Positions 28,306-47,969 of a stretch of 64,000 nt of DNA are shown piece by piece. Where the stretch lies: assembly GCA_048938895.1 (NCBI GenBank), contig JBHLLU010000007.1, forward strand, positions 32,001 to 96,000, read 5' to 3'. Made by a program: the position numbers and the translations under genes. The DNA is from Promethearchaeota archaeon (GTDB lineage: Archaea; Asgardarchaeota; Lokiarchaeia; Sigyniarchaeales; SOKP01). Under the pieces are notes generated by a model. The model made no database searches. It was not told the origin of the DNA and worked only from the letters and a program-made list of their open reading frames with translations. Every line of letters begins with the position of its first letter. Within the stretch, counting starts at the first letter, position 1.

Positions 28306-29049
28306 TTATTTATATTCAGATTCATCTACAACCAAATTGGGATCAAGTAATCCTTTTTGAATTTTCCTTAATACATAATTCCTAAATTCCTTGCTTGTGA
28401 AATTTCGAGTTTCAAATTGATTAAATTCCTCTACTTTTTCTCCTGATTTATTATTAATTGTTTCAACATCCCGCATGACATATTCAACCATCGTTGCGCC
28501 TAATAATATACTAAATAAAAAGGATGAAATTAAAGCAGCATCTTTTTCTTTGATCTCTCCTTTATCAATTGCTTTTTGAATTACGCGAGTAGTTCCTTCC
28601 AGATATCTAAAGGGCTTATATTCTTTTTCAAATGGTCCTTTTTTTTCTGAGGGAGGAGATCGGATAATGTGCATCATTCGAAAAGCCGCATAATCTTTTT
28701 CTGCAAATTCAAAAAAGTGTTTAAAAATTTTTAGTAATAAATCAACAGTTGAACCGTTAAAATTCTTAATGATCTCCCGGTTTTCATTCCTGTATTGTTC
28801 ATAAAACTTTTTCCTTATCGCAATCCATAGTTCTCGTTTGCTTTCTACATAATTATAGAGATTATTTTGGCTCATACCTAATTTTCTTGCGAGACCACGT
28901 AGTGTGAAACCATGAAGTCCTTGTTCTTGAAATAATTGTTTTCCTACTTCAAGAATTTCATCAAATTGTTGAGCTTTCTTCTCAGGAGACCTACTTCTTG
29001 TTTGTTTTTTACTATTAATATCGCTTTTTCCATCAATCATTGATTTCAC
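28306..29049 (-). CDS. TetR/AcrR family transcriptional regulator
   Basis: ILEVGKQLFQEQGLHGFTLRGLARKLGMSQNNLYNYVESKREL HTH. Confidence 0.92.
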   Translation of the reverse strand: MKSMIDGKSDINSKKQTRSRSPEKKAQQFDEILEVGKQLFQEQGLHGFTLRGLARKLGMSQNNLYNYVESKRELWIAIRKKFYEQYRNENREIIKNFNGSTVDLLLKIFKHFFEFAEKDYAAFRMMHIIRSPPSEKKGPFEKEYKPFRYLEGTTRVIQKAIDKGEIKEKDAALISSFLFSILLGATMVEYVMRDVETINNKSGEKVEEFNQFETRNFTSKEFRNYVLRKIQKGLLDPNLVVDESEYK

Positions 29050-29067
29050 AGAATTTTAAAATGAGTC

Positions 29068-29088
29068 TAAATTCACATAATTAATTTA
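29068..29088. promoter_or_regulatory. Putative TetR operator (degenerate) in the tetR/activase divergent region
   Basis: TAAATTCAC-ATA-ATTAATTTA, two mismatches to the consensus palindrome. Confidence 0.5.
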
Positions 29089-29159
29089 AAATGATTTATT
29101 GTTCAAGTACTTTATGAATTTATTTTCAATTTTTCTAAAAAATATGATGGTGTCTACTT

Positions 29160-30104
29160 ATAGCATCAAAATCTAAAGGTTTAATCTTCAAAATTGAGAG
29201 AATGGCTACTGACGATGGCCCTGGTATTCGTACGACAATTTTTTTTAATTATTGTCCCTTAAATTGCATTTGGTGTCATAATCCAGAATCCATTCCAAAG
29301 AAACCTCAACTTCAATGGATAGATCGTAAATGTATTGGTTGTAATAGTTGTGTAGATGCTTGCCAAGAGAATATCCTATTTTTTGAAGAAGATGGTTTAC
29401 ATATTAATAGAGAGAAATGTACTAGTTGTGGAGATTGTGCAGAAGCCTGTCCAAGTACGGCATTAACTATGTGGGGTAAGTGGTGGGATCTAGATATTCT
29501 TTTTCGCGATATTGAGAAAGAAAAAATATTTTTTGATAAAACAAGAGGAGGTATTACCGTTTCTGGTGGTGAACCTACATTTCAAGCAGATTTTCTCTTA
29601 CAGTTATTAAAATTATGTAAGGAAAATGACATTACTACTGCTTTAGATACTTGTGGATATTCAAGTAAAAAAGTTTATCAAGATTTATTACCCTACGTTG
29701 ATATTGTCCTTTTAGATATAAAAGTCATTGATCCTAAAAAACATGAAGAATATACGGGTGTTCCAAATAAAATAATTTTAGATAATGCTAAATGGATTTC
29801 ACGTTATATCAAAGAAAATGGAAAAGTTATGTGGATAAGAACACCAATAATTCCTCACTATACTGCAACTAAAGAGAATGTTAAAGGAATTGGAGAATTC
29901 ATTGTAAATGAATTAAATAATATTCCTGATCAATGGGATCTATTAAGTTTTAATAAACTATGCGAAATTAAATATTCAAGGTTAGGTCAACCATGGCCTT
30001 TAAAGGATGAGCCCTTAATGACAAAAGAAGAGATGGAAAATTTTCTTGAAATTGCTAAAAATACAGGTGTCAAAAACGTTAAGTGGTCTGGTTTAACTCG
30101 TTGA
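29160..30104 (+). CDS. Glycyl-radical enzyme activating enzyme (radical SAM with 2x[4Fe-4S] insert); probable ATA start
   Basis: DGPGIRTTIF..CPLNCIWCHNPE, CxxCxxCxxxC twice, GGITVSGGEPT, DTCGY, IRTPIIP; conserved GLIFKIER continues in frame upstream of ATG 29202. Confidence 0.92.
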   Translation: MASKSKGLIFKIERMATDDGPGIRTTIFFNYCPLNCIWCHNPESIPKKPQLQWIDRKCIGCNSCVDACQENILFFEEDGLHINREKCTSCGDCAEACPSTALTMWGKWWDLDILFRDIEKEKIFFDKTRGGITVSGGEPTFQADFLLQLLKLCKENDITTALDTCGYSSKKVYQDLLPYVDIVLLDIKVIDPKKHEEYTGVPNKIILDNAKWISRYIKENGKVMWIRTPIIPHYTATKENVKGIGEFIVNELNNIPDQWDLLSFNKLCEIKYSRLGQPWPLKDEPLMTKEEMENFLEIAKNTGVKNVKWSGLTR

Positions 30105-30256
30105 ATCGAAAAAAAACGAATTGCAAATCCTCTATTTCTTATATTTTATATTAAAATATCATTCTCATTTCACATCTTAAACAAGAATATGATCTTGAGT
30201 TTTTTAATTTAAGATTGAAAAATAAAATAGAAAAAATTAAAAAAGTAAAATAAAAT

Positions 30257-32695
30257 TTATATTTCATTGAATACTGTTCTTGCGATAATATCATCCTGAA
30301 GTTCTTTTCTTAGATCTATGAATCGAGCAGAATAACCTGAGACTTTAACGGAAAGATCAGGATATTTCTCTGGATGAGCTTGAGCGTCTCTTAATGTTTC
30401 TGAACTTATTGGATTTATCTGAAGCTCTCGACCTCCCATCTCTAAATAAGCCTCCACTATAGAAGTTAAATGTTCGAGTCCCTCATCTGTTTCTAGTATA
30501 TTCGGATTGATTCTAATATTCATAGTTGCTCCATTCGTTAAATGAGGGTCAGCTGTAGCATAGGCTACTGATCGAAGTGTCATAGTAAGCCCATTCTTTT
30601 CCATACCGTTTGCAGGAGAAATACCATTTGATACAGGTTCATAGGCTAATCTTCCATCTGCAGTCGCCCCCAATGCTTTACCTTCCATAACTTGTGTTCC
30701 GGAAGATACAAGACAATTATGATATATACCATCACCGCCTCTTGCTTTATATTTTCTTGTAATATCACATATAGTAGATGCAACCCATTTTGCTAACTCG
30801 TCTACCTTTTCATCACCATTACCGTATTTGGGAGCTTTATTTCGTAATTTTTCTCGAAGTTCTTCCGCCCCCTTGAAATTATTATTCATATGGTTAACTA
30901 ATTCTTCCATGCTCACTAATTTCTCTTCAAAAACTGCCCATCGAATTGCTGCTAAGGAGTCTGCGACACCACCAAGTCCTTGAGACCCCATTGGGTTGTT
31001 GTTATATTTAGCTCCGTTTCTAGTTGCATCCATTCCGCTTTCGAGACATCCTTCTATCGTAGATGATAGCAATGGGGAAGGTAGGTAATCTGCAAATGCT
31101 TTATCCTTTAACTCAGCCTTTTGTACCGTGAGATCTATAGCAAATTTAAGCTGTTCTACATAAGCTTTCTTGACATCTTCAAAAGATTTAAAAGTTTTAG
31201 CTGGGGGTGTTTTCACTCCAACAGTTTTATTTCCTGAAAAAATAGTGCGTCCTTCATTTAATGCCATGTTAAGAAGGATTGAAATCTGAATAGCATTCCC
31301 TGCAGTATAAGAGAAATCATTACCAGTACCATGGGGTTCCACGCATCCCACAAGTGAATAATCTCTAGCATCCTCTAATGAATATCCAGTATTATGAAGT
31401 TGTGGGACTAGAACTTCATCATTATGAATGCCCATTCCAGCTGTATATTTAAAAGCTTCAATTGTCCTTTTCAGAAAATTATGGGGTGTCTTGGAAGAAA
31501 TTCGTATTGATATTGTATTTAATAAGCTTTTTACATTTGCAACAGCCTCAAGAAACATGTATGATACATCATTAGTAGCGTCATTTCCATCCTTGTCTAG
31601 TCCACCGATAGTTACATTATTCTGTCCTGCGATAACGACAGAAGCAAGTTTAACTAAATACTCCTCAACGAGTTCTAAAGCTTCTTCATAAGTAATACGG
31701 CCTTCGGCTAAATCAGCGGCATAATATGGGTAAAGATATTGGTCAACGCGTCCTTGAGAAAATATATTTCCTTCACCATAACTCATTTCCATGACGACAT
31801 TAGTCATCCATATTGATTGAAGTGCTTCTATAAATGTTCTTGGTGGAAGGGCAGGTACTCGTCTTGTGCGTTCAGCAATTTCTAAGAGTTCAGCCTTTCT
31901 TGTTTCTGAAGCATTTTCTGCCATTTCCACTGCAAGATCAGCATAACGATTGGAATAATCGCAGGCAGTTCTTGCTGCAACTACGACTGATTCATAAAAA
32001 TCCTTGCGTTGGTCATATTTTTCATCAGTCTCCCTGAGTTTCGTAAGCCCTTCTTCTGCCATTTTTTCAATTCCTCTAAATCCCATTTTAAGAACTCGTC
32101 TATATCCAGGAATAACATGTCCTTGACCACTAGCACCTGCAAATATATCAGTGCCGCCCCGAGATCTACCCATAGGACTTAGTTCAGACTCTGCTGTAGT
32201 TAAACCTGCTTTTTCCCAATATTCTCTTTTCCGAGCTGCTACTGTTCTTCCTTTCCAGAAGGGGACGATTTCATTTTTCAACTCATCCATTTCTTCCTTT
32301 GGTAAGGGAAGATATCGATTAAGGAAAGTAAATTTTTTGGCAAACCCATCTCTTATTCTTTTATCTATTGCATCATTAAAGATAAACCCAAAAATACTAG
32401 CACGCATTCCACGTTCTATTTCAATTGGATCGGCTCTTACCTTACTAGATTTTACACCCACAAGAAGCTCATCGTTCTCAATCCTAATCGGTAAGCGATG
32501 TAAGAATTCCTCTAATGCTTTAGCATTCTTCATACAGGGCGGAGCATCTTCCATTTGTTTATATATTATTGTATAACACCGAGCTCGTTCAATATCAAGT
32601 TCTCTAGGCATAGAAAGCATTCTATCTCTAATCTTTCGAACCCTCTCGGAAGGAATCCCTTGAAGAGGGGTCATTTTAATACCTTGAACAACCAT
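30257..32695 (-). CDS. Glycyl radical enzyme (PFL superfamily, eliminase-like), copy 1
   Basis: GRVDQYLYPYY, VGCVEP Cys loop, APKYGNGD, ATADGR, Gly loop VKVSGYSARF. Confidence 0.93.
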   Translation of the reverse strand: MVVQGIKMTPLQGIPSERVRKIRDRMLSMPRELDIERARCYTIIYKQMEDAPPCMKNAKALEEFLHRLPIRIENDELLVGVKSSKVRADPIEIERGMRASIFGFIFNDAIDKRIRDGFAKKFTFLNRYLPLPKEEMDELKNEIVPFWKGRTVAARKREYWEKAGLTTAESELSPMGRSRGGTDIFAGASGQGHVIPGYRRVLKMGFRGIEKMAEEGLTKLRETDEKYDQRKDFYESVVVAARTACDYSNRYADLAVEMAENASETRKAELLEIAERTRRVPALPPRTFIEALQSIWMTNVVMEMSYGEGNIFSQGRVDQYLYPYYAADLAEGRITYEEALELVEEYLVKLASVVIAGQNNVTIGGLDKDGNDATNDVSYMFLEAVANVKSLLNTISIRISSKTPHNFLKRTIEAFKYTAGMGIHNDEVLVPQLHNTGYSLEDARDYSLVGCVEPHGTGNDFSYTAGNAIQISILLNMALNEGRTIFSGNKTVGVKTPPAKTFKSFEDVKKAYVEQLKFAIDLTVQKAELKDKAFADYLPSPLLSSTIEGCLESGMDATRNGAKYNNNPMGSQGLGGVADSLAAIRWAVFEEKLVSMEELVNHMNNNFKGAEELREKLRNKAPKYGNGDEKVDELAKWVASTICDITRKYKARGGDGIYHNCLVSSGTQVMEGKALGATADGRLAYEPVSNGISPANGMEKNGLTMTLRSVAYATADPHLTNGATMNIRINPNILETDEGLEHLTSIVEAYLEMGGRELQINPISSETLRDAQAHPEKYPDLSVKVSGYSARFIDLRKELQDDIIARTVFNEI

Positions 32696-32721
32696 AATTC
32701 TTATATTGTTTTTTTATTATT

Positions 32722-32750
32722 TAAATTAACTATGTTAATTTATTTATAAA
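32722..32750 (-). promoter_or_regulatory. TATA box plus palindromic operator upstream of GRE copy 1
   Basis: Perfect TAAATTAAC-TAT-GTTAATTTA (32722-32742) abutting TTTATAAA (32743-32750). Confidence 0.7.
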
Positions 32751-32893
32751 TTATTGTAATAATGTATAATCTTTTATAAAAAATTTTGTAATAAAGTTAA
32801 TTTTATTTAGTTTTAGCAAGTAAGTTAAAAGAAAGAATTTCTTTAAGGCTATTTAAAAATATTAATAAAAATTAAAAAAATGAAAACTAAATT

Positions 32894-35323
32894 TTATAAT
32901 TCATTAAATACTGTACGGGAAATGATGTCATTTTGAAGACTTCTACCCACTTCTATAAAACGAGCAGAATAACCTGTAACCTTAACTGATAAGTCAGGGT
33001 ATTTTTCTGGATGAGCTTGAGCGTCTCTTAATGTTTCTGAACTTACTGGATTAATTTGAAGTTCTCTTCCTCCTATTTCTAAATAAGCTTCAACAATAGA
33101 AGTTAACTTATCTACACCCTCTTCTGTTTCTATTAAACTGGGATTGATCCTTATGTTCATTGATGCTCCACCGGTTAGGAGGGCATCTTTTGTCGCGTAA
33201 GCTACTGATCGGAGCGTCATAGTAAGCCCATTTTTCTCTGTTCCGTTTGCAGGAGATATGCCGTTAGAAACAGCTTCACCAGATAATCTTCCATCGGGAG
33301 TAGCTCCTAACATTTTACCCTCAAGTATATTAAGTCCTGAAGATACAAAATATGTGCGATAAATACCAGCACCACCTCTGGCAGGATATTTTCTCACAAT
33401 ATCACATAAAGTATTCGCAACCCATATTGCTAGTTCATCTGTCCGTTCATCACCATTACCGTATTTGGGAGCCTTATTTCTTAAAAGTTCTTTAAGTTTC
33501 TCTGCTCCCTTGAAATTATTATTCAGATGCGTAACTAATTCTTCCATTGTTAACAACTTTTCTTCGAATACAGCCCAACGAATTGCTGCTAATGAATTGG
33601 TTACGGTTGCTAATGCTTGACAGCCAATAGGGTTGTTATTATAGAGCGCTCCATTTCGAGTTACATCTTTTCCACTCTCTAGACATCCCTCTATTGTAGA
33701 TGAAAGCAAGGGGGAAGGAAAATAATCTGCATATACTTTATCCTTTAGTTCAGCCTTTTTCACCACTAAATCTACTCCAAAGGAAAGCTGGTCTACAAAA
33801 GCTTGTTTCACATCTTCGAAAGTTTTAAATGTACTTGGATGAGGGGTTTTTGCTCCAAATTGGCGGTTCCCTGCTATAATCATTTGTCCTTCGTTTAAAG
33901 CCATATGTAAAACGGTTGACAATCGAACACCATTACCTGCAGTGTATGAAAAATCAAAACCTGTACCATGAGGTTCTACACAACCTACAAGTGAGTAATC
34001 TCGGGCATGTTCTAGTGAATAGCCATCTTCTTGAAGCTGTGGTACTAAGATTTCATCATTATGAATGCCCATTCCACCTGTGTATTTAAAAGCTTCAATA
34101 GTTCTTTTCACAAAATCCCGAGGTGTCTTGGAAGAAATCCGTATTGATATTGTATTCAATAAACTTTTTACATTTGCAACAGCTTCAAGAAACATATAAG
34201 ATATATCATTTGTGGTATCATTTCCATCCTTATCTAATCCTCCAATAGTTATATTATTCTGTCCTGCGATAACAACAGAAGCAAGTTTAACTAAATATTC
34301 CTCAATGGCTTCCAAAGCTTCCTCATAAGTAATCCGTCCTTCTGCTAAATCAGCTGCATAATAAGGATAAAGATATTGATCTACTCGTCCTTGAGAAAAT
34401 ATATTACCATTACCATAGCTCATTTCCATGACGACGTTGGTCATCCATACCGATTGAAGTGCTTCCATGAAACTTCTGGGTGGGAGGGAAGGCACTCTTC
34501 TTGTCCGTTCAGCGATATCTAAAAGTTCTGCTCTTCTATGTTCTGGTGCATTTTCAGCCATCTCTATTGCCAGATTTGCGTAACGATTAGAATAATCACA
34601 AACAGCTTTGGAACAAACTTGAACTGCTTCATAAAAAGTCTTGCGATTTTCGTAATCCTCATCATCTTCTTTAAGTTTTTCAAGTTCTTCGATAGCTCGT
34701 TTTTCTATTCCTTTAAATCCTATTTTAAGAACTCGTTTATACCCTGGAATGGTATGACCCTGCATATTTGCATAAAATGGGTTAATCCAACTCTCAGCTC
34801 GTTCCATAGAACTCTTTTTCTCCTTGAATAAGCCTGCTTCGATCCAAAGTTTTTCTTTCAGGTCCGTTAATGTCTTCCCTTTCCAAACTGGGATAATATC
34901 ATTTTTCAATTCGTCAAGTTCTTCTTCTGTAAAAGGGACATAACGTCTAAGGATGGGATTACGCCTGCGGAAATAATCTTTAGTTTTTTCGTCTATTGAA
35001 TCATCTAAAAGAAAATCATATGTTCGAACATGCCTTCCAAGTTCTATTTCAAAAGGATCAGCTCGTATTTTACTGGATTTTACTCCTACAAGAATTTCAT
35101 CAGTGTCAATCCTAATAGGGAGGCAGCGCAAAAATTCTTCTAATGCTTTAGCCTTTTTCATGTAGGGATGAGCATCTTCCATCTGTTTCCAAATCCTTGA
35201 ATAGCATCGTGCTCGCTCAAGATCATATTCGAAGGGTTGGGATAACATTTTGTCCCTAATTTTACGAACCCTTTCTGTAGGAATACCTTGAAGTGGAGTC
35301 AATCTGATATCTTGAACTACCAT
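32894..35323 (-). CDS. Glycyl radical enzyme (PFL superfamily, eliminase-like), copy 2
   Basis: GRVDQYLYPYY, VGCVEP, APKYGNGD, ATPDGR, VKVTGYSARF; colinear paralog of copy 1. Confidence 0.93.
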   Translation of the reverse strand: MVVQDIRLTPLQGIPTERVRKIRDKMLSQPFEYDLERARCYSRIWKQMEDAHPYMKKAKALEEFLRCLPIRIDTDEILVGVKSSKIRADPFEIELGRHVRTYDFLLDDSIDEKTKDYFRRRNPILRRYVPFTEEELDELKNDIIPVWKGKTLTDLKEKLWIEAGLFKEKKSSMERAESWINPFYANMQGHTIPGYKRVLKIGFKGIEKRAIEELEKLKEDDEDYENRKTFYEAVQVCSKAVCDYSNRYANLAIEMAENAPEHRRAELLDIAERTRRVPSLPPRSFMEALQSVWMTNVVMEMSYGNGNIFSQGRVDQYLYPYYAADLAEGRITYEEALEAIEEYLVKLASVVIAGQNNITIGGLDKDGNDTTNDISYMFLEAVANVKSLLNTISIRISSKTPRDFVKRTIEAFKYTGGMGIHNDEILVPQLQEDGYSLEHARDYSLVGCVEPHGTGFDFSYTAGNGVRLSTVLHMALNEGQMIIAGNRQFGAKTPHPSTFKTFEDVKQAFVDQLSFGVDLVVKKAELKDKVYADYFPSPLLSSTIEGCLESGKDVTRNGALYNNNPIGCQALATVTNSLAAIRWAVFEEKLLTMEELVTHLNNNFKGAEKLKELLRNKAPKYGNGDERTDELAIWVANTLCDIVRKYPARGGAGIYRTYFVSSGLNILEGKMLGATPDGRLSGEAVSNGISPANGTEKNGLTMTLRSVAYATKDALLTGGASMNIRINPSLIETEEGVDKLTSIVEAYLEIGGRELQINPVSSETLRDAQAHPEKYPDLSVKVTGYSARFIEVGRSLQNDIISRTVFNEL

Positions 35324-35350: not shown

Positions 35351-35379
35351 TAAATTAACTATGTAAATTTATTTATAAA
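35351..35379 (-). promoter_or_regulatory. TATA box plus palindromic operator upstream of GRE copy 2
   Basis: TAAATTAAC-TAT-GTAAATTTA (35351-35371) abutting TTTATAAA (35372-35379). Confidence 0.7.
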
Positions 35380-35483: not shown

Positions 35484-37232
35484 TTATTCCACAGATAAAC
35501 TCTCTTTAGGTTCTTGAATTTCTGATCGTATCGACGTAGGAGGATTTACACACCAAATATAATGTCCCTCCTCGACTTTTATCCTATGAGGTAATTCAAA
35601 TTCACATTCTTTAGTACGTGCATCTGAAGAGCAGCGTGGATTAAAAGTGCATCCCGGTGGGGGTGCTATAGGACTTGGAACTTCTCCTTTAATAACAAAA
35701 CTGATTTCTTGATTGTATGGATCAATGTCAGAATGTGAAGAAAGAAGTGCTTGAGTATACGGATGAGTGGGTCTTTTAAAAACTTGTTCTTTACTTCCAA
35801 CTTCTACAATTTTTCCAAGATACATGACAGCAACACGATCAGCAATATAATTTACAACAGCTAAATTATGAGTAATAAACAGATATCCATACCCATATTG
35901 TGCTTGTAACTCTCTAAGAAGATTGAGTATTTGTGCTTGAACTGATACATCTAGTGCCGAAGTTGGCTCGTCTAAGATAATTAATTCAGGATTACATGCC
36001 AATGCTCTCGCAATAACAATTCTTTGCTTCTGACCACCAGAAAATTCATGCGGGTAGCGATCCATATGCTCTCGTTTTAAGGAAACTTCGTCCAGCAATC
36101 TTAATACACGTTTTCTGATTTCTATTTTATCTGTAACAGCAAGTAAATTTCTGAGCGGTTCTGCTATTATATCAACTATTTTCATACGTGGATTTAAAGA
36201 TGCATCTGGATCTTGAAAAACCATTTGTATCTTATGTCTTAAATAAGCAGAATAATCTGGAGGGATTGATTTATTTTGGAACAACATTTCTCCTTCGGTC
36301 TTATCTACCAAACCTAGAACAGCTTTAGCAACTGTTGTTTTCCCACATCCACTTTCTCCTACTAAACCCAATGTCTCACCAGTTTTTATGCTAAAAGAGA
36401 TTCCATTAACTGCCTTCACAGCACCAATTTGCCTTTTAAGGGTTCCTTTATAGAGGGGATAGTGTACTTTAAGATCTTTTACGTTAAGTAAAGCTTTATC
36501 TTTCTCAAGAACAGTTAAACCTCTGAGTTCTGTTAGTTCTATGGTTTGGTAAGCTATGAATTTCACAACCACGATAACAATAATTGCTATAATAAAACTA
36601 AATAAGATATTACTAAAAGCATTCTTAAGAAATTTGTCTTGTTGAGTAATAAAGGTTAATATTAAATAATAGACTCCAGGTGCTATGCTACCAAAAGCAA
36701 GAGGTATCCTATGTTGCACTAATTGTATTTTATTGCCCCAATAAGCCAGTAAAATAGATAATCCGAAAAGAAAGAGAAAACCTAGAGCAAAAGTAAATTT
36801 TGACCCATCTAAATCATCATTTCCTTCAATTAGCCAGATATTAAGGATCTTAGGAAGAGCATTTAAAAACAACGATATTACTAGTAAAATACCTTGAATG
36901 AATCCAATAATTTTGATGGACTCAAAAAAATTTTTATTATAAAATCCCCATAAAACTAATACACCAATAGGGATAAATAGTATTGCATTTACAAAAATCA
37001 GTATTAAAGAGGAATCAATGATAGAATTCAATATAATAAAAGTGAAGACCAATAAAAGTGAATAACCTAATTGAATCAAAGTGAAAAGTAACCAAATAGA
37101 ATTTATTACGAGAGCAATCTTCGTTGAATTCTCCCACATCTTCGATCTTATATAACTTCTCATGATAAAAAATCCAATTATGAATAGAATAACTGGAAAA
37201 ATAATAATTTCAGATATATCAACCATGATCAT
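35484..37232 (-). CDS. OppF/DppF-type ABC ATPase fused to N-terminal multi-TM domain
   Basis: GESGCGKTT, FQDP, YPHEFSGGQKQR, DEPTSALD, HPYT, C-terminal Cys motif; first ~225 aa strongly hydrophobic. Confidence 0.88.
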   Translation of the reverse strand: MIMVDISEIIIFPVILFIIGFFIMRSYIRSKMWENSTKIALVINSIWLLFTLIQLGYSLLLVFTFIILNSIIDSSLILIFVNAILFIPIGVLVLWGFYNKNFFESIKIIGFIQGILLVISLFLNALPKILNIWLIEGNDDLDGSKFTFALGFLFLFGLSILLAYWGNKIQLVQHRIPLAFGSIAPGVYYLILTFITQQDKFLKNAFSNILFSFIIAIIVIVVVKFIAYQTIELTELRGLTVLEKDKALLNVKDLKVHYPLYKGTLKRQIGAVKAVNGISFSIKTGETLGLVGESGCGKTTVAKAVLGLVDKTEGEMLFQNKSIPPDYSAYLRHKIQMVFQDPDASLNPRMKIVDIIAEPLRNLLAVTDKIEIRKRVLRLLDEVSLKREHMDRYPHEFSGGQKQRIVIARALACNPELIILDEPTSALDVSVQAQILNLLRELQAQYGYGYLFITHNLAVVNYIADRVAVMYLGKIVEVGSKEQVFKRPTHPYTQALLSSHSDIDPYNQEISFVIKGEVPSPIAPPPGCTFNPRCSSDARTKECEFELPHRIKVEEGHYIWCVNPPTSIRSEIQEPKESLSVE

Positions 37233-37252
37233 AAATAACCTCTAATTATTCT

Positions 37253-40227: not shown

Positions 40228-41304
40228 TTAAGTATATGTTATTCTAGGATCAATAATAGTATACATGACGTCCGCAACTAAATTCCCTGTAAGAAGTATT
40301 ATGGTAGAAAATACTAAGAGTCCGTTTATAACTAAATAATCTCCTAAAAATATCGACTCAACCATATAAAAGCCAAAACCTTTATATTCAAAAGTTACTT
40401 CAATAAAAAAAGATCCTAGTAATGCCGTTGCGGTCCCCCCGATAATAAGATTGCTAGTGGGTAATAAAGCATTTCGAAGGGCATGTTTATTTATAACATC
40501 TTTTTCTATAACACCTTTAGCTCTCGCAGTTCTAATGTAATCTTGATCTAAAACATCTAACATACTTGATCGGGTTTGCCTAGTAATAGCGGCCAACGAA
40601 ACAAAAGTTACGCATAGAGCCGGAAGAAGTAAATGTTGTAATGTGTCCCATAGATAAATTTGATCATTATAGAGGAAACTATCAATTAAACGAAATCCTG
40701 TTTTATCCCAAGGCCAAACAAGGTCTGGCTCTGGATATCTCAATCCTGGAGTATTAGCGAAAAATACAGGTAAGTCTAATTTAGTATACGTAAACGTTCC
40801 CAAATAATAACCAAATAAGAGCTGAAGCAAAGTAGCAATCCAAAACACGGGAAACCCAGCTCCAAAAATTGCAAGAGCTCTGATGAGAATATCTTTTGAT
40901 TTATCCTTATGGGTTGCTGATGATAGTCCAAGCTTAACTGCAATGATAGGACTTAATACTATCGGAATTATCATTAATTCTATTGTTCTTGGAAATACTT
41001 CTAAAATAAAATCGATAACAGGAACATTTTCTCGAATTACATAAGAATTACCCCAATCTCCTGTAAAAAAATTTTTATAATACAAACCCAATTGAACATA
41101 CCAAGGATCATAGAAACCAGCTCTCTCTAATTCGGCTTTAAGCACGTCAAAATCAACTAAGCCACCTAATTTGTTGGTAATTGGGCTTACTTCCATCAAA
41201 TGCGATAAAATCCAGGCAAAAGTTAGAACAAGAAACAACATTGGGATCATCATTAATATCCGTCTGATGATATATTTTATCATATTTGTCTTTTTTTTAA
41301 CCAC
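40228..41304 (-). CDS. OppB/DppB-type ABC permease
   Basis: YIIRR, GDWGNS, DYIRTARAKG, HALRNA, IIDPRI. Confidence 0.93.
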   Translation of the reverse strand: MVKKKTNMIKYIIRRILMMIPMLFLVLTFAWILSHLMEVSPITNKLGGLVDFDVLKAELERAGFYDPWYVQLGLYYKNFFTGDWGNSYVIRENVPVIDFILEVFPRTIELMIIPIVLSPIIAVKLGLSSATHKDKSKDILIRALAIFGAGFPVFWIATLLQLLFGYYLGTFTYTKLDLPVFFANTPGLRYPEPDLVWPWDKTGFRLIDSFLYNDQIYLWDTLQHLLLPALCVTFVSLAAITRQTRSSMLDVLDQDYIRTARAKGVIEKDVINKHALRNALLPTSNLIIGGTATALLGSFFIEVTFEYKGFGFYMVESIFLGDYLVINGLLVFSTIILLTGNLVADVMYTIIDPRITYT

Positions 41305-41460: not shown

Positions 41461-41487
41461 TATAAATAAATTTACTTCGTAAATTTA
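41461..41487 (+). promoter_or_regulatory. TATA box plus palindromic operator upstream of the solute-binding protein gene
   Basis: TATAAA (41461-41466) immediately followed by perfect TAAATTTAC-TTC-GTAAATTTA (41467-41487). Confidence 0.7.
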
Positions 41488-41535
41488 ATTTAACAAAAAA
41501 ATCGAAATCAAAAAAAAGTAAGGCGAATCAATAAT

Positions 41536-43746
41536 ATGAAAAAATATTCAAAAGGATTAATATTAACTCTTTTTCTTACTTCTATGCTAATACCGTTCTT
41601 TCCTATTGCAAAAGCTCAAGTCACAGATGTTTTTATTGGAAGCTCCGCCGGACCACGTTCTCTTGCTCACTGGGATAGTCCTACTGCTGTGGTTAGTACT
41701 GGCGATTATTATGTGGGTGCCACTCTTGAAACATTGTTTCGACCACGAGAACAGCTTTGGGATGGTGGTAATGATGGCGCTGAATTACTTCCAGTACTTG
41801 CAACAAGCTGGGTACTTACAAATAGACCAGATGAAATGAATGAGGATGGTTTTATGAATTATGACGGTGTAGAATCAGTAGAAATAACCCTTCGATCGGG
41901 AGTTAAGTTCCATGACGGTTCAGATTGGAATGCAACAGTATGCAAATGGAATATCGATAGACTTATGACAATTATTGGGAATATTAGTGGTATTACACCA
42001 GTAGTTGATTCAAATATGGGTTCTAGACGAGATACTTTTTGGTTAGAACAAGCTGATTGGGCACCCTATGAAAGCCCCAGTTGGAATGTCACGCAGTATG
42101 CGGGGAAGCCTGGAGAGTATCCAGGATTTGGTACCTCTACTGAATCAAAAATGATGGGTCGCTGGCCCCGATTTTATAATGTAACCATTACACAAGATTT
42201 ACAATCGGGGGGGACACTTATAATCCATTTTGGTGACTGGGCCTCTGGTATGAATTATTTATGGGGAATCATCATGATCTCAATGTATTCCTATGGAGCA
42301 GACTATTCTGATACTGCTATCTTAGGATATGGTCTGACTCCTCCTTTTCTACAACCAGATATTTCTGGTGGCTATCCTACTACAGGATTCCCCGGACACC
42401 TCATAGGTACAGGTCCTTATGTTTTTGAAGAACATGTATCGGATATTGGTACATTACATAGATGGGATGATTGGTGGAATGCTACTGCTCAACAAGCTGA
42501 GGGTTGGCATACAGTTGAGAACGTTGCGTTAGCTACTTTTGCCCACACAGAAGCAGGATATCAGGCTAGAAATACTGCTATGGTTACAGGAGATATTGAC
42601 TGTGCTTATGACCGTACTTGGGAACCTGTCAATTATAAAGATATGAAAAAAGCTCCTAATGTAAGATATGTACCTCTTGGCGTTGAAAGTTATGGAGAAA
42701 ATATAATTCTCAATTGTATCAATGAAACGTTTATGTGGACTTGGGCTAATGTCTATCACTTAAATATGAGTTCCTACTATCCTACTCTCAAGGGTGCATT
42801 CGTTGCTTCAGGAGTAATGAATCCAGACGGGACTATGAATGCACATGGAATAAATCGTGCTTTTAGAAAGGCGCTTTCTTATGCGTTTGATTATGATACT
42901 TGGATACACGTTGCAATGGAAGACCGTGTAGTACGTTCTGGAGGATATCTTTGCACAACAAATCCATATTATAATCCATCCATACCAATTGCTACTCATA
43001 ACCTCACCATAGCACGCCAAGCTCTTTTAGATGATCCATACTGGGGAGCAAAATGTGCTGCTAGAGGTCTTGATGAAAGTAGTTCAGATAGTGATTGGCG
43101 GACAGTAGCAGAGACCAATCCTATTTATAGCATGGAGTATAGTTGGGATGATGCCCATTTAGAATCTTATAGTGTGATGTCGACAAGTCTTACGGATATT
43201 GGGTGTGATCTGGCTGATACCGAAGCTTGGAAAGATGTACCTGATACATACACTAAAATGTCTGCATACTTCACATTTCCTTGGACCATAACTGATGGAT
43301 TTGCATTAAAATTAGGTTATACCCGAGTAGCCAATCTTGGTTACCTTGAAGCCTATTATAAGAGTCCTGCATCTTCAATCTTTCCATATGATCAGTTTTA
43401 CAATATGGGCTTTTGCTATAATACAACATACGATAATGCAATCAAGAAAGTCTGGTTCCAAAATGAAACTGGAGTTCAAGAATCATATGATTTCCTATCT
43501 GATTGGATTCAGAACTATCAATATCCAACTATTTATTTAGGGAATGATTTGAGGGGGATGGCAATCGCTAAAGACTGGGATTTTAGCTTTTTCTGGGGTG
43601 TGTTCAGGTTTAATTTTATTAAGCCTAGAGAACCGGGTGCGGCACCATTGATCCCAGGTTATTCACTTTGTGTTATTTTACCTGTTGGAATAATGGCTAT
43701 CTCAGGAATCGGTTACACAATTATAAGAAAAAAGAAACATGCATAG
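41536..43746 (+). CDS. Family 5 (OppA/DppA-like) ABC solute-binding protein with Loki-type C-terminal sorting signal
   Basis: Signal peptide; PVLATSW, LRSGVKFHDGSDWNA, IGTGPY, RAFRKALSYAFD; C-terminal IPGY + TM + RKKK. Confidence 0.88.
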   Translation: MKKYSKGLILTLFLTSMLIPFFPIAKAQVTDVFIGSSAGPRSLAHWDSPTAVVSTGDYYVGATLETLFRPREQLWDGGNDGAELLPVLATSWVLTNRPDEMNEDGFMNYDGVESVEITLRSGVKFHDGSDWNATVCKWNIDRLMTIIGNISGITPVVDSNMGSRRDTFWLEQADWAPYESPSWNVTQYAGKPGEYPGFGTSTESKMMGRWPRFYNVTITQDLQSGGTLIIHFGDWASGMNYLWGIIMISMYSYGADYSDTAILGYGLTPPFLQPDISGGYPTTGFPGHLIGTGPYVFEEHVSDIGTLHRWDDWWNATAQQAEGWHTVENVALATFAHTEAGYQARNTAMVTGDIDCAYDRTWEPVNYKDMKKAPNVRYVPLGVESYGENIILNCINETFMWTWANVYHLNMSSYYPTLKGAFVASGVMNPDGTMNAHGINRAFRKALSYAFDYDTWIHVAMEDRVVRSGGYLCTTNPYYNPSIPIATHNLTIARQALLDDPYWGAKCAARGLDESSSDSDWRTVAETNPIYSMEYSWDDAHLESYSVMSTSLTDIGCDLADTEAWKDVPDTYTKMSAYFTFPWTITDGFALKLGYTRVANLGYLEAYYKSPASSIFPYDQFYNMGFCYNTTYDNAIKKVWFQNETGVQESYDFLSDWIQNYQYPTIYLGNDLRGMAIAKDWDFSFFWGVFRFNFIKPREPGAAPLIPGYSLCVILPVGIMAISGIGYTIIRKKKHA

Positions 43747-43769
43747 ATTTAAGAATTAATAACAATTTC

Positions 43770-43783
43770 ATTTTTTTTTTTTT
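43770..43783 (+). terminator. Oligo-T archaeal terminator after the solute-binding protein gene
   Basis: Run of ~14 T about 25 nt after the stop codon. Confidence 0.5.
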
Positions 43784-43919
43784 CCTTCTATTAGCTTAAA
43801 AAGACTAAGTTTTAATAAATTCTAGAAACCTTAAAAGGACTAACAGATTTTAAAATCCGTAAAATCAAGTTTCATTACAAAATGAAAAATTTATAATATA
43901 TATAGCCCTCAATTATTTT

Positions 43920-45023
43920 ATGACTCAAATTGATAATTATGAGATTGTAAGACAAAAATTACAAATTGGAACAATAACTGCTCCTAACCACAAAAAAATA
44001 TTCAAATTGATGAAGATTTTCTGGAATGAAGATGAGATCAAAGTTTTATCTCAATTTAATAATGTGGGGATGAAAACCTCTCGAAAAGAATTAGCGGAAA
44101 AAACAGGTAAATCAGAAGAAGAAATAGAAGAACTGTTAAGAAGATCAGCAAGAAATGGCACCGTTTTGAGATCTGGCTCAGATTATCGATTGCTTCCGCT
44201 TGTACCAGGTATATTTGAAATGTACTTTATCAGACGAAAGGATTCTGAAGAAAATCTTCACAAAGTTGCAGAGATTTATCGATACATTTTCAAAAACAGA
44301 GCACCAGATTTAGAAGATGATAAAAGCATCCGAAGAGGATTCCGTCCTTTACTTCCATATGATTCTGAGGAGAAGTTAATTAAAGTTGATGAATCGTTAG
44401 ATGTTGAGACTAAGGTTCTTCCTTTTGAAGTAGTTAAAGATATGATCGATAAAAATGAATCATTTGCCGTTGTACCTTGTCAGTGTCGGTTAATTGGTGA
44501 ATATACAGGAGAACCATGCAAACATGCATCTGCAGAATTGGGTTGTTTTCTAACTGGAGAAGCTGCGGAAAGGCAGATAGGTTATGGCGCAAAAAGACTG
44601 ACTAAGGAAGAAGCTATTGAGTTTATTAGAGAAACTGAGAAAGCAGGACTTGTTCATAATACTGTTGCAGATACCAGTAAAGACACGTCTCAATGGATTT
44701 GTAATTGTTGTAGTTGTCATTGTGGAGTATTACTTCCCGCCAAATTATATCATTATAAGGGTGTTTTTCAGACTAATTTTACTCCTGAATTTGATATGGA
44801 ACTCTGTACTAAATGTGAAATATGTATGGAAAAATGTCCTAACGAAGCGATTTATCATGTCTGGCCAAGTAAACCAGATTCATCAGATGAGAAGATGAAA
44901 GTTAGAGAAGAAATGTGTATAGGATGCGGAACTTGTGCTGCAAATTGTCCAAATAATGCAATTAAAATGGTTAAAGTAAGAGACGAGCACCCTAAAAGAC
45001 TGAGCATAAATATTTTTGGTTAA
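43920..45023 (+). CDS. Iron-sulfur protein: N-terminal wHTH-like region, PCxCR/CNCCxCxC motifs and 2x[4Fe-4S] ferredoxin domain
   Basis: PCQCR, GLVH, ICNCCSCHC, CTKCEICMEKCP, CIGCGTCAANCP. Confidence 0.85.
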   Translation: MTQIDNYEIVRQKLQIGTITAPNHKKIFKLMKIFWNEDEIKVLSQFNNVGMKTSRKELAEKTGKSEEEIEELLRRSARNGTVLRSGSDYRLLPLVPGIFEMYFIRRKDSEENLHKVAEIYRYIFKNRAPDLEDDKSIRRGFRPLLPYDSEEKLIKVDESLDVETKVLPFEVVKDMIDKNESFAVVPCQCRLIGEYTGEPCKHASAELGCFLTGEAAERQIGYGAKRLTKEEAIEFIRETEKAGLVHNTVADTSKDTSQWICNCCSCHCGVLLPAKLYHYKGVFQTNFTPEFDMELCTKCEICMEKCPNEAIYHVWPSKPDSSDEKMKVREEMCIGCGTCAANCPNNAIKMVKVRDEHPKRLSINIFG

Positions 45024-45133
45024 ATTGATATTTCTAAGTTTAAATTCTTTTTTTTGTAAAAAAGTAATAAATTATTGATTCTCCTTGATTTTCTCGTCAC
45101 TTTCTCCTTCCGAAAATATACAAAAGCGAAAGA

Positions 45134-45895
45134 TTAACGACCTTTAAATATTGGCTTTCGATTTTCACTAAGCGCCTTGATACCTTCCTGCAGGTCTTCA
45201 CTATCTAATTGAGGTTGAATAAACGCATTAAATTCCTCCTGGGCTAAACGTGCTGCTTTTCTTGCTGCAGGTTCCATATTCTTGTAAAGTCCATATTTAA
45301 TCGCTTTTAGTGTTAATGGCGCATTGTCACGTAGTATTTCAGCCATCTTGGTAGCTTCTATCATAAGCTCTTCCTTATTTTTTGTTACATGGTTGACTAA
45401 ACCCACTTCATAAGCTCGTTTACCACTCATTGGTTGACCGCCCATATAAAATTCCATAGCAACCTTAAAAGGCATGTAAGGGGTATATTCTATAATTCCA
45501 CCTACAATTCCGACCCACGCTTCACCAAAGATGAACTGAGTATCTTCAGTGGCATAGGTAATATCGGTACCACGAATCGCAAGTCCATATCCACTTCCCG
45601 CAACAGTTCCATGCACAGCCCCAACAATTGGTTTCAGGATTTTGGTTCCATTCGAGGGAAATGCTTTACGAAGATCGTTTAATAAGCCCCTGACTCTGAG
45701 ATCTGCACCAAAACTAAAGTCTGGACCATTTGCACTGAGAATTCCAACTCTGCTTTCAGGATCATCAGCGAAGCGATCCCATGCTTTTCCCAAGGCTTTA
45801 CATAAAGGAGGATCTAATAAATTTCGCTTTGGATTGTTTAATGTAATATATGCAATCTGATCTTTAACCTCATATATTAATACTTCACTTGACAT
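45134..45895 (-). CDS. Enoyl-CoA hydratase/isomerase (crotonase) family protein
   Basis: YITLNNP, FSFGADL, KPIVGAVHG, GLVN, SEDLQEGI...ENRKPIFKGR. Confidence 0.9.
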   Translation of the reverse strand: MSSEVLIYEVKDQIAYITLNNPKRNLLDPPLCKALGKAWDRFADDPESRVGILSANGPDFSFGADLRVRGLLNDLRKAFPSNGTKILKPIVGAVHGTVAGSGYGLAIRGTDITYATEDTQFIFGEAWVGIVGGIIEYTPYMPFKVAMEFYMGGQPMSGKRAYEVGLVNHVTKNKEELMIEATKMAEILRDNAPLTLKAIKYGLYKNMEPAARKAARLAQEEFNAFIQPQLDSEDLQEGIKALSENRKPIFKGR

Positions 45896-46026
45896 TTTTT
45901 TTACCTTTTTTATGTTTGATTAGATTTTTCAATAGTTATATATGGATTATTTTTATATATAATTTTTTTAACTTTGAAATAACCATGCTTTGAGCAATAA
46001 ATTTAAAAACTTAGGAAATAATTCAT

Positions 46027-47325
46027 TTATTTTCGAGAGAAACCATATTTTTCAAGCGTTTTAGTTACAGCCATAACATTTTCATGTTTCGAACGTTCAG
46101 GAAGACCTACTCCACCATCAAGAATATACCCTCCACCTTCCTTGCAGCCTTCAAGGATTTTTTTCACGTAATCTTCCATTTGAATTGGAGTTCCTGCAAT
46201 AAATAATGTTGCAGGAATATTTCCCAGAATTATTGCATAATCACCCATTCTTTCTTTTACTTTAATTATATCTGTTTTATCAAACCTATAACATACTTTT
46301 CCCTTATGCGATTTAGCAAATTCTTCAAGATAATCAAGTCGATCATTATATGATCCTTCTATGAAAGGTGATGCAATATAACCTTGTTTAATAAAATTAT
46401 CCATGACTTTTGCTAGTGATGGCCAATAAAATTCTGCAAATTGCTCATCACTCATAAATCCATCAGCTCCTCTATGTAAAGGCATAAAAACCATAGGATC
46501 GATCTCTTGATGTACACTTCTGGAACTTAATGTCATTACTTCACTCAATGGTACAATAAACATTTCTATTAATGCTTTTAATTCCTCAGGTCGTTGATAC
46601 ATATCTAACATTACACCCCTCAGACCTCTAAGTTGATCACCGACCATATCAAAGGGAGCAAATGAAAATGCATTCCTTGTATTCAATGAAGGAAAGCCTA
46701 GTTTTTTCATCTCACTTAAATAATTCATACTAGCATTCCTTGATTTCCTCATTAGTTGTCGTACTTCACCAATTTTTTCCACTAGCTTCAAAACATCTGG
46801 ATTCATGATCCACATTGGTATTCCCATTAAACCATTTAATAATTGGAGCCTTGTAAAATTTGGAAACAAGGTAAATGGCTTAAAAAGACCACACAGATTG
46901 GGCAAGACTTTTCGAATTACATACTGAGTAGGATCTGCAAGAATCTCTTTATAATCTTCAGCTTTCATGTATTCACCTTCAATATATTGAACTGTCGAGT
47001 TATCTGGTAATCGAACCTCTGGATTTTCAGCCCCTGCCCATTTTAAAGTCTTTACTTCCAGTAGATCCATGATAGGGCCTGATTGTAAGCCTAAGATGCC
47101 ACTAGAGGCTAAATCCCATTCATATTGTGGTAAAATTTTTAAAGCCGCTTCATACATTTTTTCAGGATTATAATTTGCCTCTTTAACTGTCATCCCATTT
47201 TGAATAGCAGCATAAAGTGTGCCCATTGGAGCATATGGAACCCGATCTGGTTCTCTCATTTTCATTGCATCAATATATCTTTGCTTTCTTATTTCACAAA
47301 GTCGTTCAATTTCTTCTTCATTCAT
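46027..47325 (-). CDS. UroD-fold methyltransferase (substrate:corrinoid, MT1-like)
   Basis: EPDRVP, APFD, RGLRGVMLDMY, PLHRGADGFMS..FYWP, GNIP, GGGYIL; directly downstream of corrinoid protein gene; ATG 47325 preferred. Confidence 0.8.
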   Translation of the reverse strand: MNEEEIERLCEIRKQRYIDAMKMREPDRVPYAPMGTLYAAIQNGMTVKEANYNPEKMYEAALKILPQYEWDLASSGILGLQSGPIMDLLEVKTLKWAGAENPEVRLPDNSTVQYIEGEYMKAEDYKEILADPTQYVIRKVLPNLCGLFKPFTLFPNFTRLQLLNGLMGIPMWIMNPDVLKLVEKIGEVRQLMRKSRNASMNYLSEMKKLGFPSLNTRNAFSFAPFDMVGDQLRGLRGVMLDMYQRPEELKALIEMFIVPLSEVMTLSSRSVHQEIDPMVFMPLHRGADGFMSDEQFAEFYWPSLAKVMDNFIKQGYIASPFIEGSYNDRLDYLEEFAKSHKGKVCYRFDKTDIIKVKERMGDYAIILGNIPATLFIAGTPIQMEDYVKKILEGCKEGGGYILDGGVGLPERSKHENVMAVTKTLEKYGFSRK

Positions 47326-47330
47326 AGTAA

Positions 47331-47969
47331 TTACACCATTGACCACTTTGTAGCTAAATTTACTGCTTCCACAGCACTCTCTCCATAGGCATCCGCACCC
47401 ACATATTCAACAATTCTTTCATCGACAGTTCCACCTCCAATCATAATTTTTATCGTATCACGTAATCCCGCTTCTTCTACTTTTTGAATGATTTCTTTCA
47501 TCGAGTCAAATGCAAGAGTTAGGAATCCACTAAGTGCTAAAACTTTAGGTTTAAACTGTTTTAAGTTTTCGATAAACATGCTCGCAGGAACATCTATGCC
47601 TAAATCTAATACATCAAACCCATTTGCTTCTAGCATGAATTTCACTACATCTTTACCAATATCATGAATATCCCCCGCAACAGTTCCTAAAAGTACTTTT
47701 CCTTTCTTTTCTTCAGAACTTTGAACTTCTTTTAATTTAGGACCTAACTCCTCAAAGATTTGTCGCAAAATTTCTCCCGACATGATCAAATCCGGTAAGA
47801 AGTATTCTTTATTTTGGAATCTATCTCCAATAAGTTTCATAGCAGTCTTTACATCATTCATAATTAATAATAGATCATCTTTATTGGCAAGTCTTTCTTT
47901 TAATAACTCTAAAACTTTACTTTCATTCAAATCCACTATTTCATCAATAAAATTAGACACACGAATCAC
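47331..47969 (-). CDS. Corrinoid (B12-binding) methyl-acceptor protein
   Basis: EYFLPDLIMSGE cap domain; GTVAGDIHDIGK; DLGIDV; IMIGG; GADAY. Confidence 0.93.
   Translation of the reverse strand: MIRVSNFIDEIVDLNESKVLELLKERLANKDDLLLIMNDVKTAMKLIGDRFQNKEYFLPDLIMSGEILRQIFEELGPKLKEVQSSEEKKGKVLLGTVAGDIHDIGKDVVKFMLEANGFDVLDLGIDVPASMFIENLKQFKPKVLALSGFLTLAFDSMKEIIQKVEEAGLRDTIKIMIGGGTVDERIVEYVGADAYGESAVEAVNLATKWSMV

Follow-up and report, generated by a model that had tools for sequence, protein, structure and literature searches.

Glycyl-radical enzymes (GREs) of the eliminase type, such as the B12-independent glycerol dehydratase (GDH; PDB entry 1r8w), propanediol dehydratase (5i2a), CutC (5fau and 9f3w) and HypD (6vxc), share a pyruvate formate-lyase (PFL)-like domain and a Gly_radical domain, carry the Cys-x-Glu motif that is the signature of GRE eliminases, and are served by a dedicated activase with a CxxxCxxC motif and two ferredoxin-like clusters. 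In bacterial grp/cut/pdu-type loci, the aldehyde formed by the eliminase is subsequently oxidised or reduced. Many GRE clusters are uncharacterised. No known organisms are more closely related to eukaryotes than the Asgard archaea; almost none of these have been cultured, their metabolism is read from genes, and their PFL-like genes are usually taken to encode pyruvate formate-lyase. The present analysis concerns a stretch of 64,000 nucleotides from a Promethearchaeota archaeon (GenBank assembly GCA_048938895.1, contig JBHLLU010000007.1, positions 32,001 to 96,000), further referred to as the window, to which all coordinates refer. An accessory block of 20.4 kb (27658-48115), annotated by open reading frame (ORF) listing and by Pfam and NCBIfam scans, lies in it between uvrA and uvrB. 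Judged from its sequence, this block is a conserved and apparently co-regulated island for GRE-linked uptake, the GREs of which belong to an uncharacterised clade; a methyltransferase half is its optional neighbour. The best explanation, considered rather probable, is that of a TetR-controlled island for import and radical cleavage, with a methyltransferase/corrinoid pair as an add-on outside the regulon.

The core of the island comprises the following features, the operator copies being without strand:

28306 to 29049, minus strand: predicted TetR-family repressor, 247 amino acids (Pfam TetR_N PF00440, 41 bits)
29068 to 29088: operator copy with two mismatches, in the divergent region between tetR and the activase gene
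29160 to 30104, plus strand: radical-SAM GRE activase (canonical ATG at 29202; TIGR02494 score 297.5 against a cut-off of 174.35; CxxxCxxC and two ferredoxin motifs)
30257 to 32695, minus strand: GRE-A, predicted eliminase-type GRE, 812 amino acids (PF02901 and PF01228; G787, C451, E453 and H193)
32722 to 32742: exact operator copy before GRE-A, 27-47 nucleotides from its ATG and directly downstream of a TTTATAAA box
32894 to 35323, minus strand: GRE-B, paralogue of GRE-A, 809 amino acids (PF02901 and PF01228; differing at putative pocket positions)
35351 to 35371: exact operator copy before GRE-B, 27-47 nucleotides from its start and abutting a TTTATAAA box
35484 to 37232, minus strand: OppF-like ABC ATPase with an N-terminal membrane domain of about 235 amino acids (ABC_tran and oligo_HPY, residues 276-536; about seven hydrophobic segments)
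37253 to 39136, minus strand: OppD-like ABC ATPase with an N-terminal membrane domain of about 260 amino acids (ABC_tran and oligo_HPY; about seven hydrophobic segments)
39208 to 40203, minus strand: OppC-like ABC permease (BPD_transp_1)
40228 to 41304, minus strand: OppB-like ABC permease (BPD_transp_1)
41467 to 41487: exact operator copy in the divergent promoter region between the binding-protein and permease genes, 49-69 nucleotides from the ATG of the former
41536 to 43746, plus strand: family-5 solute-binding protein, 736 amino acids (SBP_bac_5; hydrophobic segments 7-25, signal-like, and 712-730, a C-terminal anchor)

These genes, as well as the accessory ones described below, had been named in a sequence-only reading of the window, and the ORF listing and the Pfam and NCBIfam scans found all of them in their places.

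GRE-A and GRE-B are 73% identical (589 of 812 residues). They score 539 and 518 bits on PF02901 (PFL-like) and 87 and 84 bits on PF01228 (Gly_radical), respectively, and possess the glycine loops VKVSGYSARF and VKVTGYSARF, which places them in the glycyl radical enzyme superfamily. Their assignment to the Cys-x-Glu eliminase type, predicted earlier from a GCVE motif, is supported by the alignment of VGCVEP (C451 and E453) with C433/E435 of GDH and C489/E491 of CutC; neither the Cys nor the Glu varies in the rows displayed of a 120-sequence alignment, and V, T or A lies in between. Similarly, among PDB chains GRE-A comes closest to CutC (465 bits), followed by the B12-independent glycerol dehydratase (421 bits), and the known eliminases among its best matches span 364-465 bits. 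Nevertheless, both proteins appear to fall in no characterised GRE class. All NCBIfam equivalogs were missed, each by more than half of its cut-off (for GRE-A, HypD 489 of 1100, HpsG 482 of 1000 and CutC 477 of 1050), as was the PFL2/glycerol dehydratase subfamily TIGR01774 (546.6 bits for GRE-A and 504.7 for GRE-B, against 678.2). Class-specific residues have been lost too. With regard to CutC (477 and 451 bits for the two proteins), D216, which binds the trimethylammonium group, is replaced by His193, Y208 by F185 and Y506 by A468, while F395 falls in a deletion. With regard to the glycerol and propanediol dehydratases, H281/S282 of GDH correspond to N310/I311, D447 to A465 and Y339 to Gln358, S282, D447 and Y339 presumably being diol-binding residues; H164 of GDH has its counterpart in H193. 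The loop that carries Y339 of GDH and F389/F395 of CutC is 13 residues shorter in GRE-A when aligned with the PDB chains, and the gap amounts to 14 residues against all three other GREs of the same genome. This short loop also occurs in the bacterial relatives P0097 and P0117 (about 50% identity), not in P0103. The residue pattern hence indicates a substrate other than choline, glycerol/propanediol or hydroxyproline.

The genome to which the window belongs (4.65 Mb; G000, other G numbers denoting the genomes compared) encodes three other GREs (L001 on contig C53, L002 on C138 and L003 on C31). Of these, one exceeds the cut-off of the HypD equivalog model (1305.6 against 1100), and the remaining two satisfy no such model. 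On TIGR01774, L002 scores 733.3 bits. In a maximum-likelihood tree of 33 sequences, from which a motif filter left out four sequences of family f11 and that of G008, the Asgard relatives of GRE-A and GRE-B form one clade with support 100/100 against six bacterial relatives of about 50% identity; inside it, A-type (15 rows) and B-type (4 rows) proteins fall into separate clades, both with good support. The two types differ at positions 185, 190, 194, 459, 468, 660-662 and 667, these differences being conserved within each type, which fits the idea that GRE-A and GRE-B take two related substrates. Orthologues of at least 66% identity were retrieved from 17 of 301 genomes of the phylum, 12 belonging to the family of the window's genome and five to family f11, and the nearest public homologues bear Asgard labels (for instance, Promethearchaeota and Lokiarchaeota). 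One to four copies occur in tandem per genome, with four in G024 (L021/L022, contig C26) and three in G326 (L100). Beyond this Asgard-only clade, the nearest relatives belong to uncultured bacteria, at about 50% identity. Their neighbourhoods, surveyed at 18 of 80 loci, picked because they combined at least 47% identity to GRE-A with long flanks (133 ORFs), were heterogeneous and contained no common pathway, the commonest domains being Radical_SAM (11 of 133 ORFs), acyl-CoA dehydrogenase (4), SBP_bac_5 (3) and TetR (3). The sequence-only reading had left the GREs to be placed against the characterised classes, and with no equivalog cut-off reached, class-specific residues lost and an Asgard-only clade, this placement points outside all of these classes.

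The activase gene shows a peculiarity at its start. The 14 in-frame codons before the ATG at 29202 (29160-29201) encode I-A-S-K-S-K-G-L-I-F-K-I-E-R, a peptide that corresponds to the usual N-terminal strand of GRE activases and that is conserved in 14 genomes with synonymous changes. At the position of the start codon, 11 genomes have ATA, G024 has ATG and G323 has GTA, G187 has a GTG further upstream, and in G298 no internal ATG occurs at all. The ATA at 29160 thus looks like a conserved non-canonical start, at which gene callers would truncate the protein.

The link between the two GRE genes, the binding-protein gene and tetR consists of a shared operator, a 21-bp palindrome with the core TAAATTWAC-N3-GTWAATTTA. 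This operator had been proposed from the sequence, and it holds with three exact copies (before GRE-A, before GRE-B and before the binding-protein gene) and a tetR-side copy with two mismatches. At up to three mismatches, six matches were found in the window against 1.39 expected, a number reached in none of 100 shuffles. In the whole genome, at up to one mismatch, only the three exact sites were found, against one per strand for a reversed-pattern control. The upstream regions of GRE-A and GRE-B are alike, as expected from tandem duplication, and also match the region upstream of the binding-protein gene and the tetR/activase spacer, in equal orientation with respect to each gene. Among relatives, tetR orthologues of at least 68% identity adjoin GRE or activase genes in ten other genomes. 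Operator copies with up to two mismatches occur in 14 of the 25 genomes compared, including 10 of the 11 that have such a TetR orthologue, and are located before GRE and binding-protein genes, at a fixed distance from the GRE start; the copy before the binding-protein gene is conserved in G002, G323, G367, G150, G304, G324 and G008. An N-terminal helix-turn-helix and an inverted repeat at its own and its target promoters are what a TetR repressor with a palindromic operator should display, and both were found in the sequence, binding itself being a prediction. A TetR repressor bound next to the TATA-like box would be expected to block an archaeal promoter. A wider regulon did not emerge, as 11 sites with up to two mismatches lie outside the island against 12 control matches, none of them on contig C115, which carries paralogues of alcohol and aldehyde oxidoreductases considered below.

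A comparison of gene order, made by tblastn of the window's proteins against the contexts of 25 genomes with GRE orthologues, revealed which genes travel together. The GRE gene adjoins ABC ATPase genes in 16 of these genomes, the locus includes the activase gene in 20, and 11 have a TetR orthologue. The conserved core thus consists of the ABC importer, one to four GREs, the activase and TetR, and this unit is the part of the island that the survey of Asgard neighbourhoods suggested by the sequence-only reading found conserved; the methyltransferase pair was absent from most cluster-bearing genomes. Around this core, the content varies. A crotonase gene is found in the cluster in five genomes (G000, G002, G015, G367 and G370), and in two more a MaoC-type hydratase takes its place (G008 and G304). 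An Fe-S protein gene occurs in five (G000, G002, G323, G367 and G370), and some versions of the cluster contain enoyl-reductase-like genes. An iron-type alcohol dehydrogenase (Fe-ADH) and an aldehyde:ferredoxin oxidoreductase (AOR), recognised by Pfam, are encoded beside the activase in five genomes (G015, G014, G150, G304 and G324), and it is these sister clusters that suggest an aldehyde as the probable product of the predicted eliminases. This arrangement resembles the logic of the bacterial grp/cut/pdu-type loci, with the Fe-ADH gene beside the activase gene. The differences are that no microcompartment shell genes were seen, that AOR replaces the CoA-acylating aldehyde dehydrogenase, that an Opp-type importer and a TetR operator are added, and that the host is an archaeon. 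In addition, a tannase-like hydrolase with a PKD domain is encoded beside the GRE in 7 of the 25 genomes, including four f11 genomes without the importer. It measures 609-738 amino acids, has a GGSGG motif and lacks a signal peptide (L033:3306-5522 in G015, L019:5245-7074 in G002, and L068, L070, L071 and L073); it stays below the threshold of Pfam Tannase (E 0.002), reaches a protein atlas score of 0.91, and had no match among PDB sequences when its representative X738 was searched. This protein may free the GRE substrate from an ester, and no such gene was detectable in G000. Two observations stand apart from this comparison. Downstream of the binding-protein gene, G024 encodes a DapA-like aldolase fused to a formaldehyde-activating enzyme domain. 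In the window itself, an AOR paralogue (63277-63999), 39% identical to the cluster-linked AOR of G015, runs off the end.

The importer of the island has the composition of the Opp/Dpp class (OppBCDF), with a family-5 binding protein, two permeases and two oligo_HPY ATPases recognised by Pfam, in the usual gene order. Unlike the known importers, both ATPases have an N-terminal extension of 235-260 amino acids, and the binding protein counts 736 amino acids. The extension is kept in relatives, as the OppD-like protein aligns over 618-632 positions of the 627-residue query, and no Pfam match was found for either extension (36528-37232 and 38357-39136). Such a fusion of an ATPase to a membrane domain is unusual in the Opp-type importer class. 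Compared with PDB sequences, the binding protein gave one weak match only, over 38 residues.

The island as a whole is accessory DNA inserted between uvrA and uvrB, as these genes are nearly adjacent in four of five genus-mates without GRE-A orthologues. The features at its borders are:

24787 to 27657, minus strand: uvrA, left flank, outside the system (Pfam UvrA_inter and UvrA_DNA-bind; adjoining uvrB in cluster-less genus-mates)
27962 to 28264, plus strand: C-terminal fragment of an aldo/keto-reductase, 100 amino acids, at the uvrA-side edge of the island (Pfam Aldo_ket_red, 41.4 bits, profile positions 218-288 of 291 only)
48116 to 50131, minus strand: uvrB, right flank, outside the system (Pfam UvrB and UvrB_inter)

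The gap between uvrA and uvrB measures 59 bp in G012, G003 and G017, and 297 bp in G018; in the fifth genus-mate, G005, where the contig end truncates uvrA, it amounts to some 1.7 kb. About 120 bp of the G018 spacer are in common with the uvrA-side edge of the island (27658-27780; L174). The GC content of the block (0.35-0.37) is above that of its surroundings (about 0.30-0.33), and beyond the flanks an archaeal IF-2-type initiation factor and an STT3-type oligosaccharyltransferase were recognised by Pfam. The aldo/keto-reductase ORF is probably a gene remnant at the island edge. Other cargo was found at the same junction, namely the tannase-like hydrolase in G002, and a class-I methyltransferase-like gene together with a lone GRE-B orthologue in G024, so that the junction has the look of a hot spot for insertions, the cargo of which differs by genome. 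Neither tRNA genes nor Rfam families were found in the 64-kb window.

In the explanation preferred here, that of a TetR-controlled import-and-radical-cleavage island, the membrane-anchored binding protein would capture a compound outside the cell and the Opp/Dpp-type importer would bring it in. TetR would sit on the palindrome, which directly follows a TATA-like box upstream of both GRE genes and of the binding-protein gene, and probably also on the copy before its own gene, and would block transcription until the imported compound, or a product of it, releases the repressor from the importer and GRE promoters. The activase would then make the glycyl radical on G787, which would pass to C451, and the C451 thiyl radical would take a hydrogen from a carbinol carbon, after which E453 and H193 may assist the loss of a vicinal leaving group, in the manner of the GRE dehydratases and lyases already known. 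This would yield a carbonyl compound, probably an aldehyde, to be oxidised by AOR or reduced by Fe-ADH, and a step at the level of a hydroxy-acid CoA ester may follow, as hinted by the crotonase or MaoC hydratases and the enoyl-reductase-like genes. GRE-A and GRE-B would probably act on two related substrates. That the loop at the active site is short and that uptake requires an ABC importer suggests that the substrate may be a bulkier, polar molecule.

Several points weigh against this explanation. Firstly, the genomes compared are relatives, so that the synteny counts are not independent. Secondly, at up to two mismatches the whole genome contains 15 operator sites against 12 in the reversed control, which is background; because of this, the tetR-side copy is insignificant alone, and its support comes from its position and from copies with one mismatch at the equivalent place in G002 and G004. 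Thirdly, G024, G248 and G326 have the importer and the GREs, yet neither operator nor TetR was found in the stretches compared. Fourthly, the loop deletion that suggests a larger GRE pocket is a feature of the alignment, and the active-site roles are those ascribed to residues of GDH, CutC and HypD, for which the numbering was checked (chains 1r8w and 5fay agree). Fifthly, the island of G000 holds no aldehyde enzyme except for the aldo/keto-reductase fragment of 100 amino acids, so that the aldehyde is deduced from other genomes; in G000, only paralogues of the Fe-ADH and AOR occur, on contig C115, with 61% and 71% identity. Furthermore, family-5 binding proteins often carry peptides, which would favour an amino-acid-derived substrate. 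The sequencing runs listed were of DNA (20 holders in 10 studies), none being of RNA. Lastly, the confinement of the methyltransferase pair to this island in four of four genomes argues for some functional tie.

A further proposal, kept as a tentative possibility, is that GRE-A and GRE-B represent a new eliminase class confined to Asgard archaea, in which the active site would be open, having lost the loop that shuts it in every characterised member. Instead of a small diol or amine, such enzymes would directly cleave or dehydrate a large imported conjugate (for instance, a glycoside, an ester-linked polyol or a methylated cyclitol). The conjugate would be supplied by the Opp-type importer with its seven-segment ATPases, and in some lineages a tannase-like hydrolase or a B12 demethylase might prepare the substrate.

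The pathway favoured by the sequence-only reading also involves the accessory genes on the uvrB side of the island:

43920 to 45023, plus strand: Fe-S protein, 367 amino acids, with a Cys-rich N-terminal domain and two [4Fe-4S] motifs (Pfam), accessory
45134 to 45895, minus strand: crotonase-fold, enoyl-CoA hydratase-like protein (ECH_1, 103.5 bits), accessory
46027 to 47346, minus strand: UroD-fold, methyltransferase-I-like protein, 439 amino acids (URO-D, 87 bits), a lineage-restricted add-on
47331 to 47969, minus strand: corrinoid protein with a DxHxxG motif, DIHDIG (B12-binding PF02310, 79 bits; B12-binding_2 PF02607, 49.7 bits)

According to this single-pathway view, which is regarded as unlikely, a methylated, hydroxylated compound would be imported, demethylated by the UroD-fold and corrinoid proteins, and cleaved by the GREs. 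Demethylation might bare a vicinal diol for the GRE, and the crotonase and Fe-S protein would act downstream. The pair resembles the UroD-superfamily corrinoid systems (MtvB/OdmB/MtoB, and CdmB with PDB entry 9rui) in combining a UroD-fold protein with a DxHxxG corrinoid protein, encoded by overlapping genes (by 16 nucleotides in this case). O-demethylases and haloalkane dehalogenases have been placed in one UroD superfamily, with Asgard homologues noted, in the excerpted text of PMC13222342. The presence of the corrinoid motif is in line with demethylation, and so is the distribution of the pair. Among 400 genomes of the phylum, UroD-fold methyltransferase orthologues (86-100% identity, the window's own included) were retrieved from four only, G000 and three others at 86-89% identity, in each case from this island next to uvrB, and those three (G367, G368 and G370) all carry GRE-A/B orthologues as well. 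G370 has the pair in the order of G000, and in G368 uvrB is followed by the corrinoid and UroD-fold genes and then by the contig end. In G367, by contrast, the order is uvrB, crotonase, corrinoid protein, UroD-fold protein, Fe-S protein, binding protein, permeases, ATPases and GRE-A, with the pair between the crotonase and Fe-S genes, so that the neighbourhood has outlived a rearrangement.

Against a single pathway, G002 and G323 have otherwise the same island without the pair, uvrB being directly followed by the crotonase gene in G002 and no match at all to the UroD-fold protein being found in G323. In seven other genomes (G004, G015, G014, G024, G324, G325 and G326), the best homologue shares no more than 45% identity and is encoded away from the cluster; in five cluster-bearing genomes, it was located on another contig, at 45% identity. 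In other versions of the cluster, Fe-ADH with AOR, a tannase-like hydrolase or MaoC is found in place of the pair. None of the four pair-bearing genomes has an operator site near the pair, two mismatches being allowed, and yet the binding-protein and GRE genes on the same contigs do have one. Similarly, none was found before the Fe-S, crotonase or corrinoid genes, either in the window at up to three mismatches or in G367, G368 and G370. Unlike the described UroD-superfamily systems, the block encodes no methyltransferase II or corrinoid activase, the search having been limited to the block, and the corrinoid protein misses the TIGR02370 cut-off (172.6 against 215.3). Among solved structures, the UroD-fold protein is related to the chloromethane dehalogenase CdmB alone, its sole PDB match (99 bits), which covers half of its length (residues 211-435), and the sequence does not tell what the methyl donor is. 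Moreover, the four genomes represent one genus and the junction looks like a hot spot that took other cargo in G024 and G002, so that co-location at the hot spot and shared descent could explain the location of the pair. The pair hence amounts to an add-on specific to this island, one that most islands lack and that the operator does not reach. The doubt that the sequence-only reading itself had expressed about the methyltransferase/crotonase half was justified, as no operator precedes it and the pair is absent from most cluster-bearing genomes. Of its proposal of elimination plus demethylation in one pathway, the apparently co-regulated unit of importer, GREs, activase and TetR stands, and the inclusion of the patchy pair without operator is not supported in the form proposed. 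Its guess at the substrate (for instance, methoxy-aromatic side chains, methylated sugars or amino-alcohols) gained no support, nor did any evidence speak against it.

The Fe-S protein and the crotonase would be accessories of the lineage that has its island at the uvr genes. The Fe-S protein is loosely tied to the GREs rather than to the methyltransferase, because a full-length homologue (367 amino acids, 29% identity; L131:16014-17117) lies near a GRE relative and an activase on a deltaproteobacterial contig. A second homologue lies near a GRE relative and an activase on another deltaproteobacterial contig (L120:168-836). The PDB matches of the island's Fe-S protein run through the ferredoxin motifs only, and its N-terminal part resembles unnamed protein-atlas clusters only.

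Another explanation, deemed equally doubtful, holds that the importer carries peptides or an amino-acid derivative and that the GREs are HypD-like, their product being an imine or a keto compound instead of an aldehyde. SBP_bac_5 and oligo_HPY are indeed the hallmark domains of oligopeptide and dipeptide importers. HypD is the best-scoring equivalog for both GREs, and H193 and the Cys-x-Glu motif are common to GRE-A and the HypD equivalog of the genome. Asgard archaea have been described as degraders of peptides and amino acids in PMC8163825. The scores (488.7 and 481.6 bits) are, however, less than half of the cut-off of 1100, GRE-A is only 32% identical to the genome's own HypD equivalog, which is encoded elsewhere, Asn310 occupies the position of the Asp of WDAF in that protein, and the loop is 14 residues shorter. 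In addition, the five sister clusters with Fe-ADH and AOR point to aldehydes; neither a peptidase nor a pyrroline-carboxylate reductase was seen in the annotated clusters, and archaeal family-5 binding proteins also carry sugars.

A Gly-Cys motif is, to our knowledge, common to all non-PFL GREs and hence no mark of succinate synthases. That the GREs are pyruvate formate-lyases, as their database names say ('pyruvate formate lyase family protein' and 'formate C-acetyltransferase'), or alkyl- or benzylsuccinate synthases, as proposed for Asgard PFL-like proteins, is very improbable, as Gly-Cys-Val-Glu replaces the Cys-Cys of PFL, TIGR01255 gives 138 and 131 bits against 994, PFL (115 bits), TutD (230 bits) and MasD (231 bits) score far below CutC in the PDB, and neither small BSS/ASS subunits, at which no search was aimed, nor fumarate-related genes were seen in the clusters. 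In the excerpted text of PMC8163825, the Hermodarchaeota 'Ass/Bss' proteins, named on the basis of 29-33% identity and a Gly-Cys motif, are likewise Asgard PFL2-like GREs with a neighbouring activase, and the Hermodarchaeota-labelled P0077 is 68% identical to GRE-A; the evidence from the island points to an eliminase, not to a fumarate-adding enzyme.

A description of this cluster was not found in the literature on Asgard GREs, Asgard PFL and uncharacterised GRE dehydratases, in a search that was not exhaustive. For one widespread clade of Asgard PFL-like proteins, the island would offer a third reading, namely repressor-controlled import and radical elimination in anoxic sediments. The cluster consists of defined, testable parts (the binding protein, TetR with its operator, two GREs and the activase), and could add a substrate class to the GREs. 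It could also suggest a growth substrate for the enrichment of these Asgard archaea.

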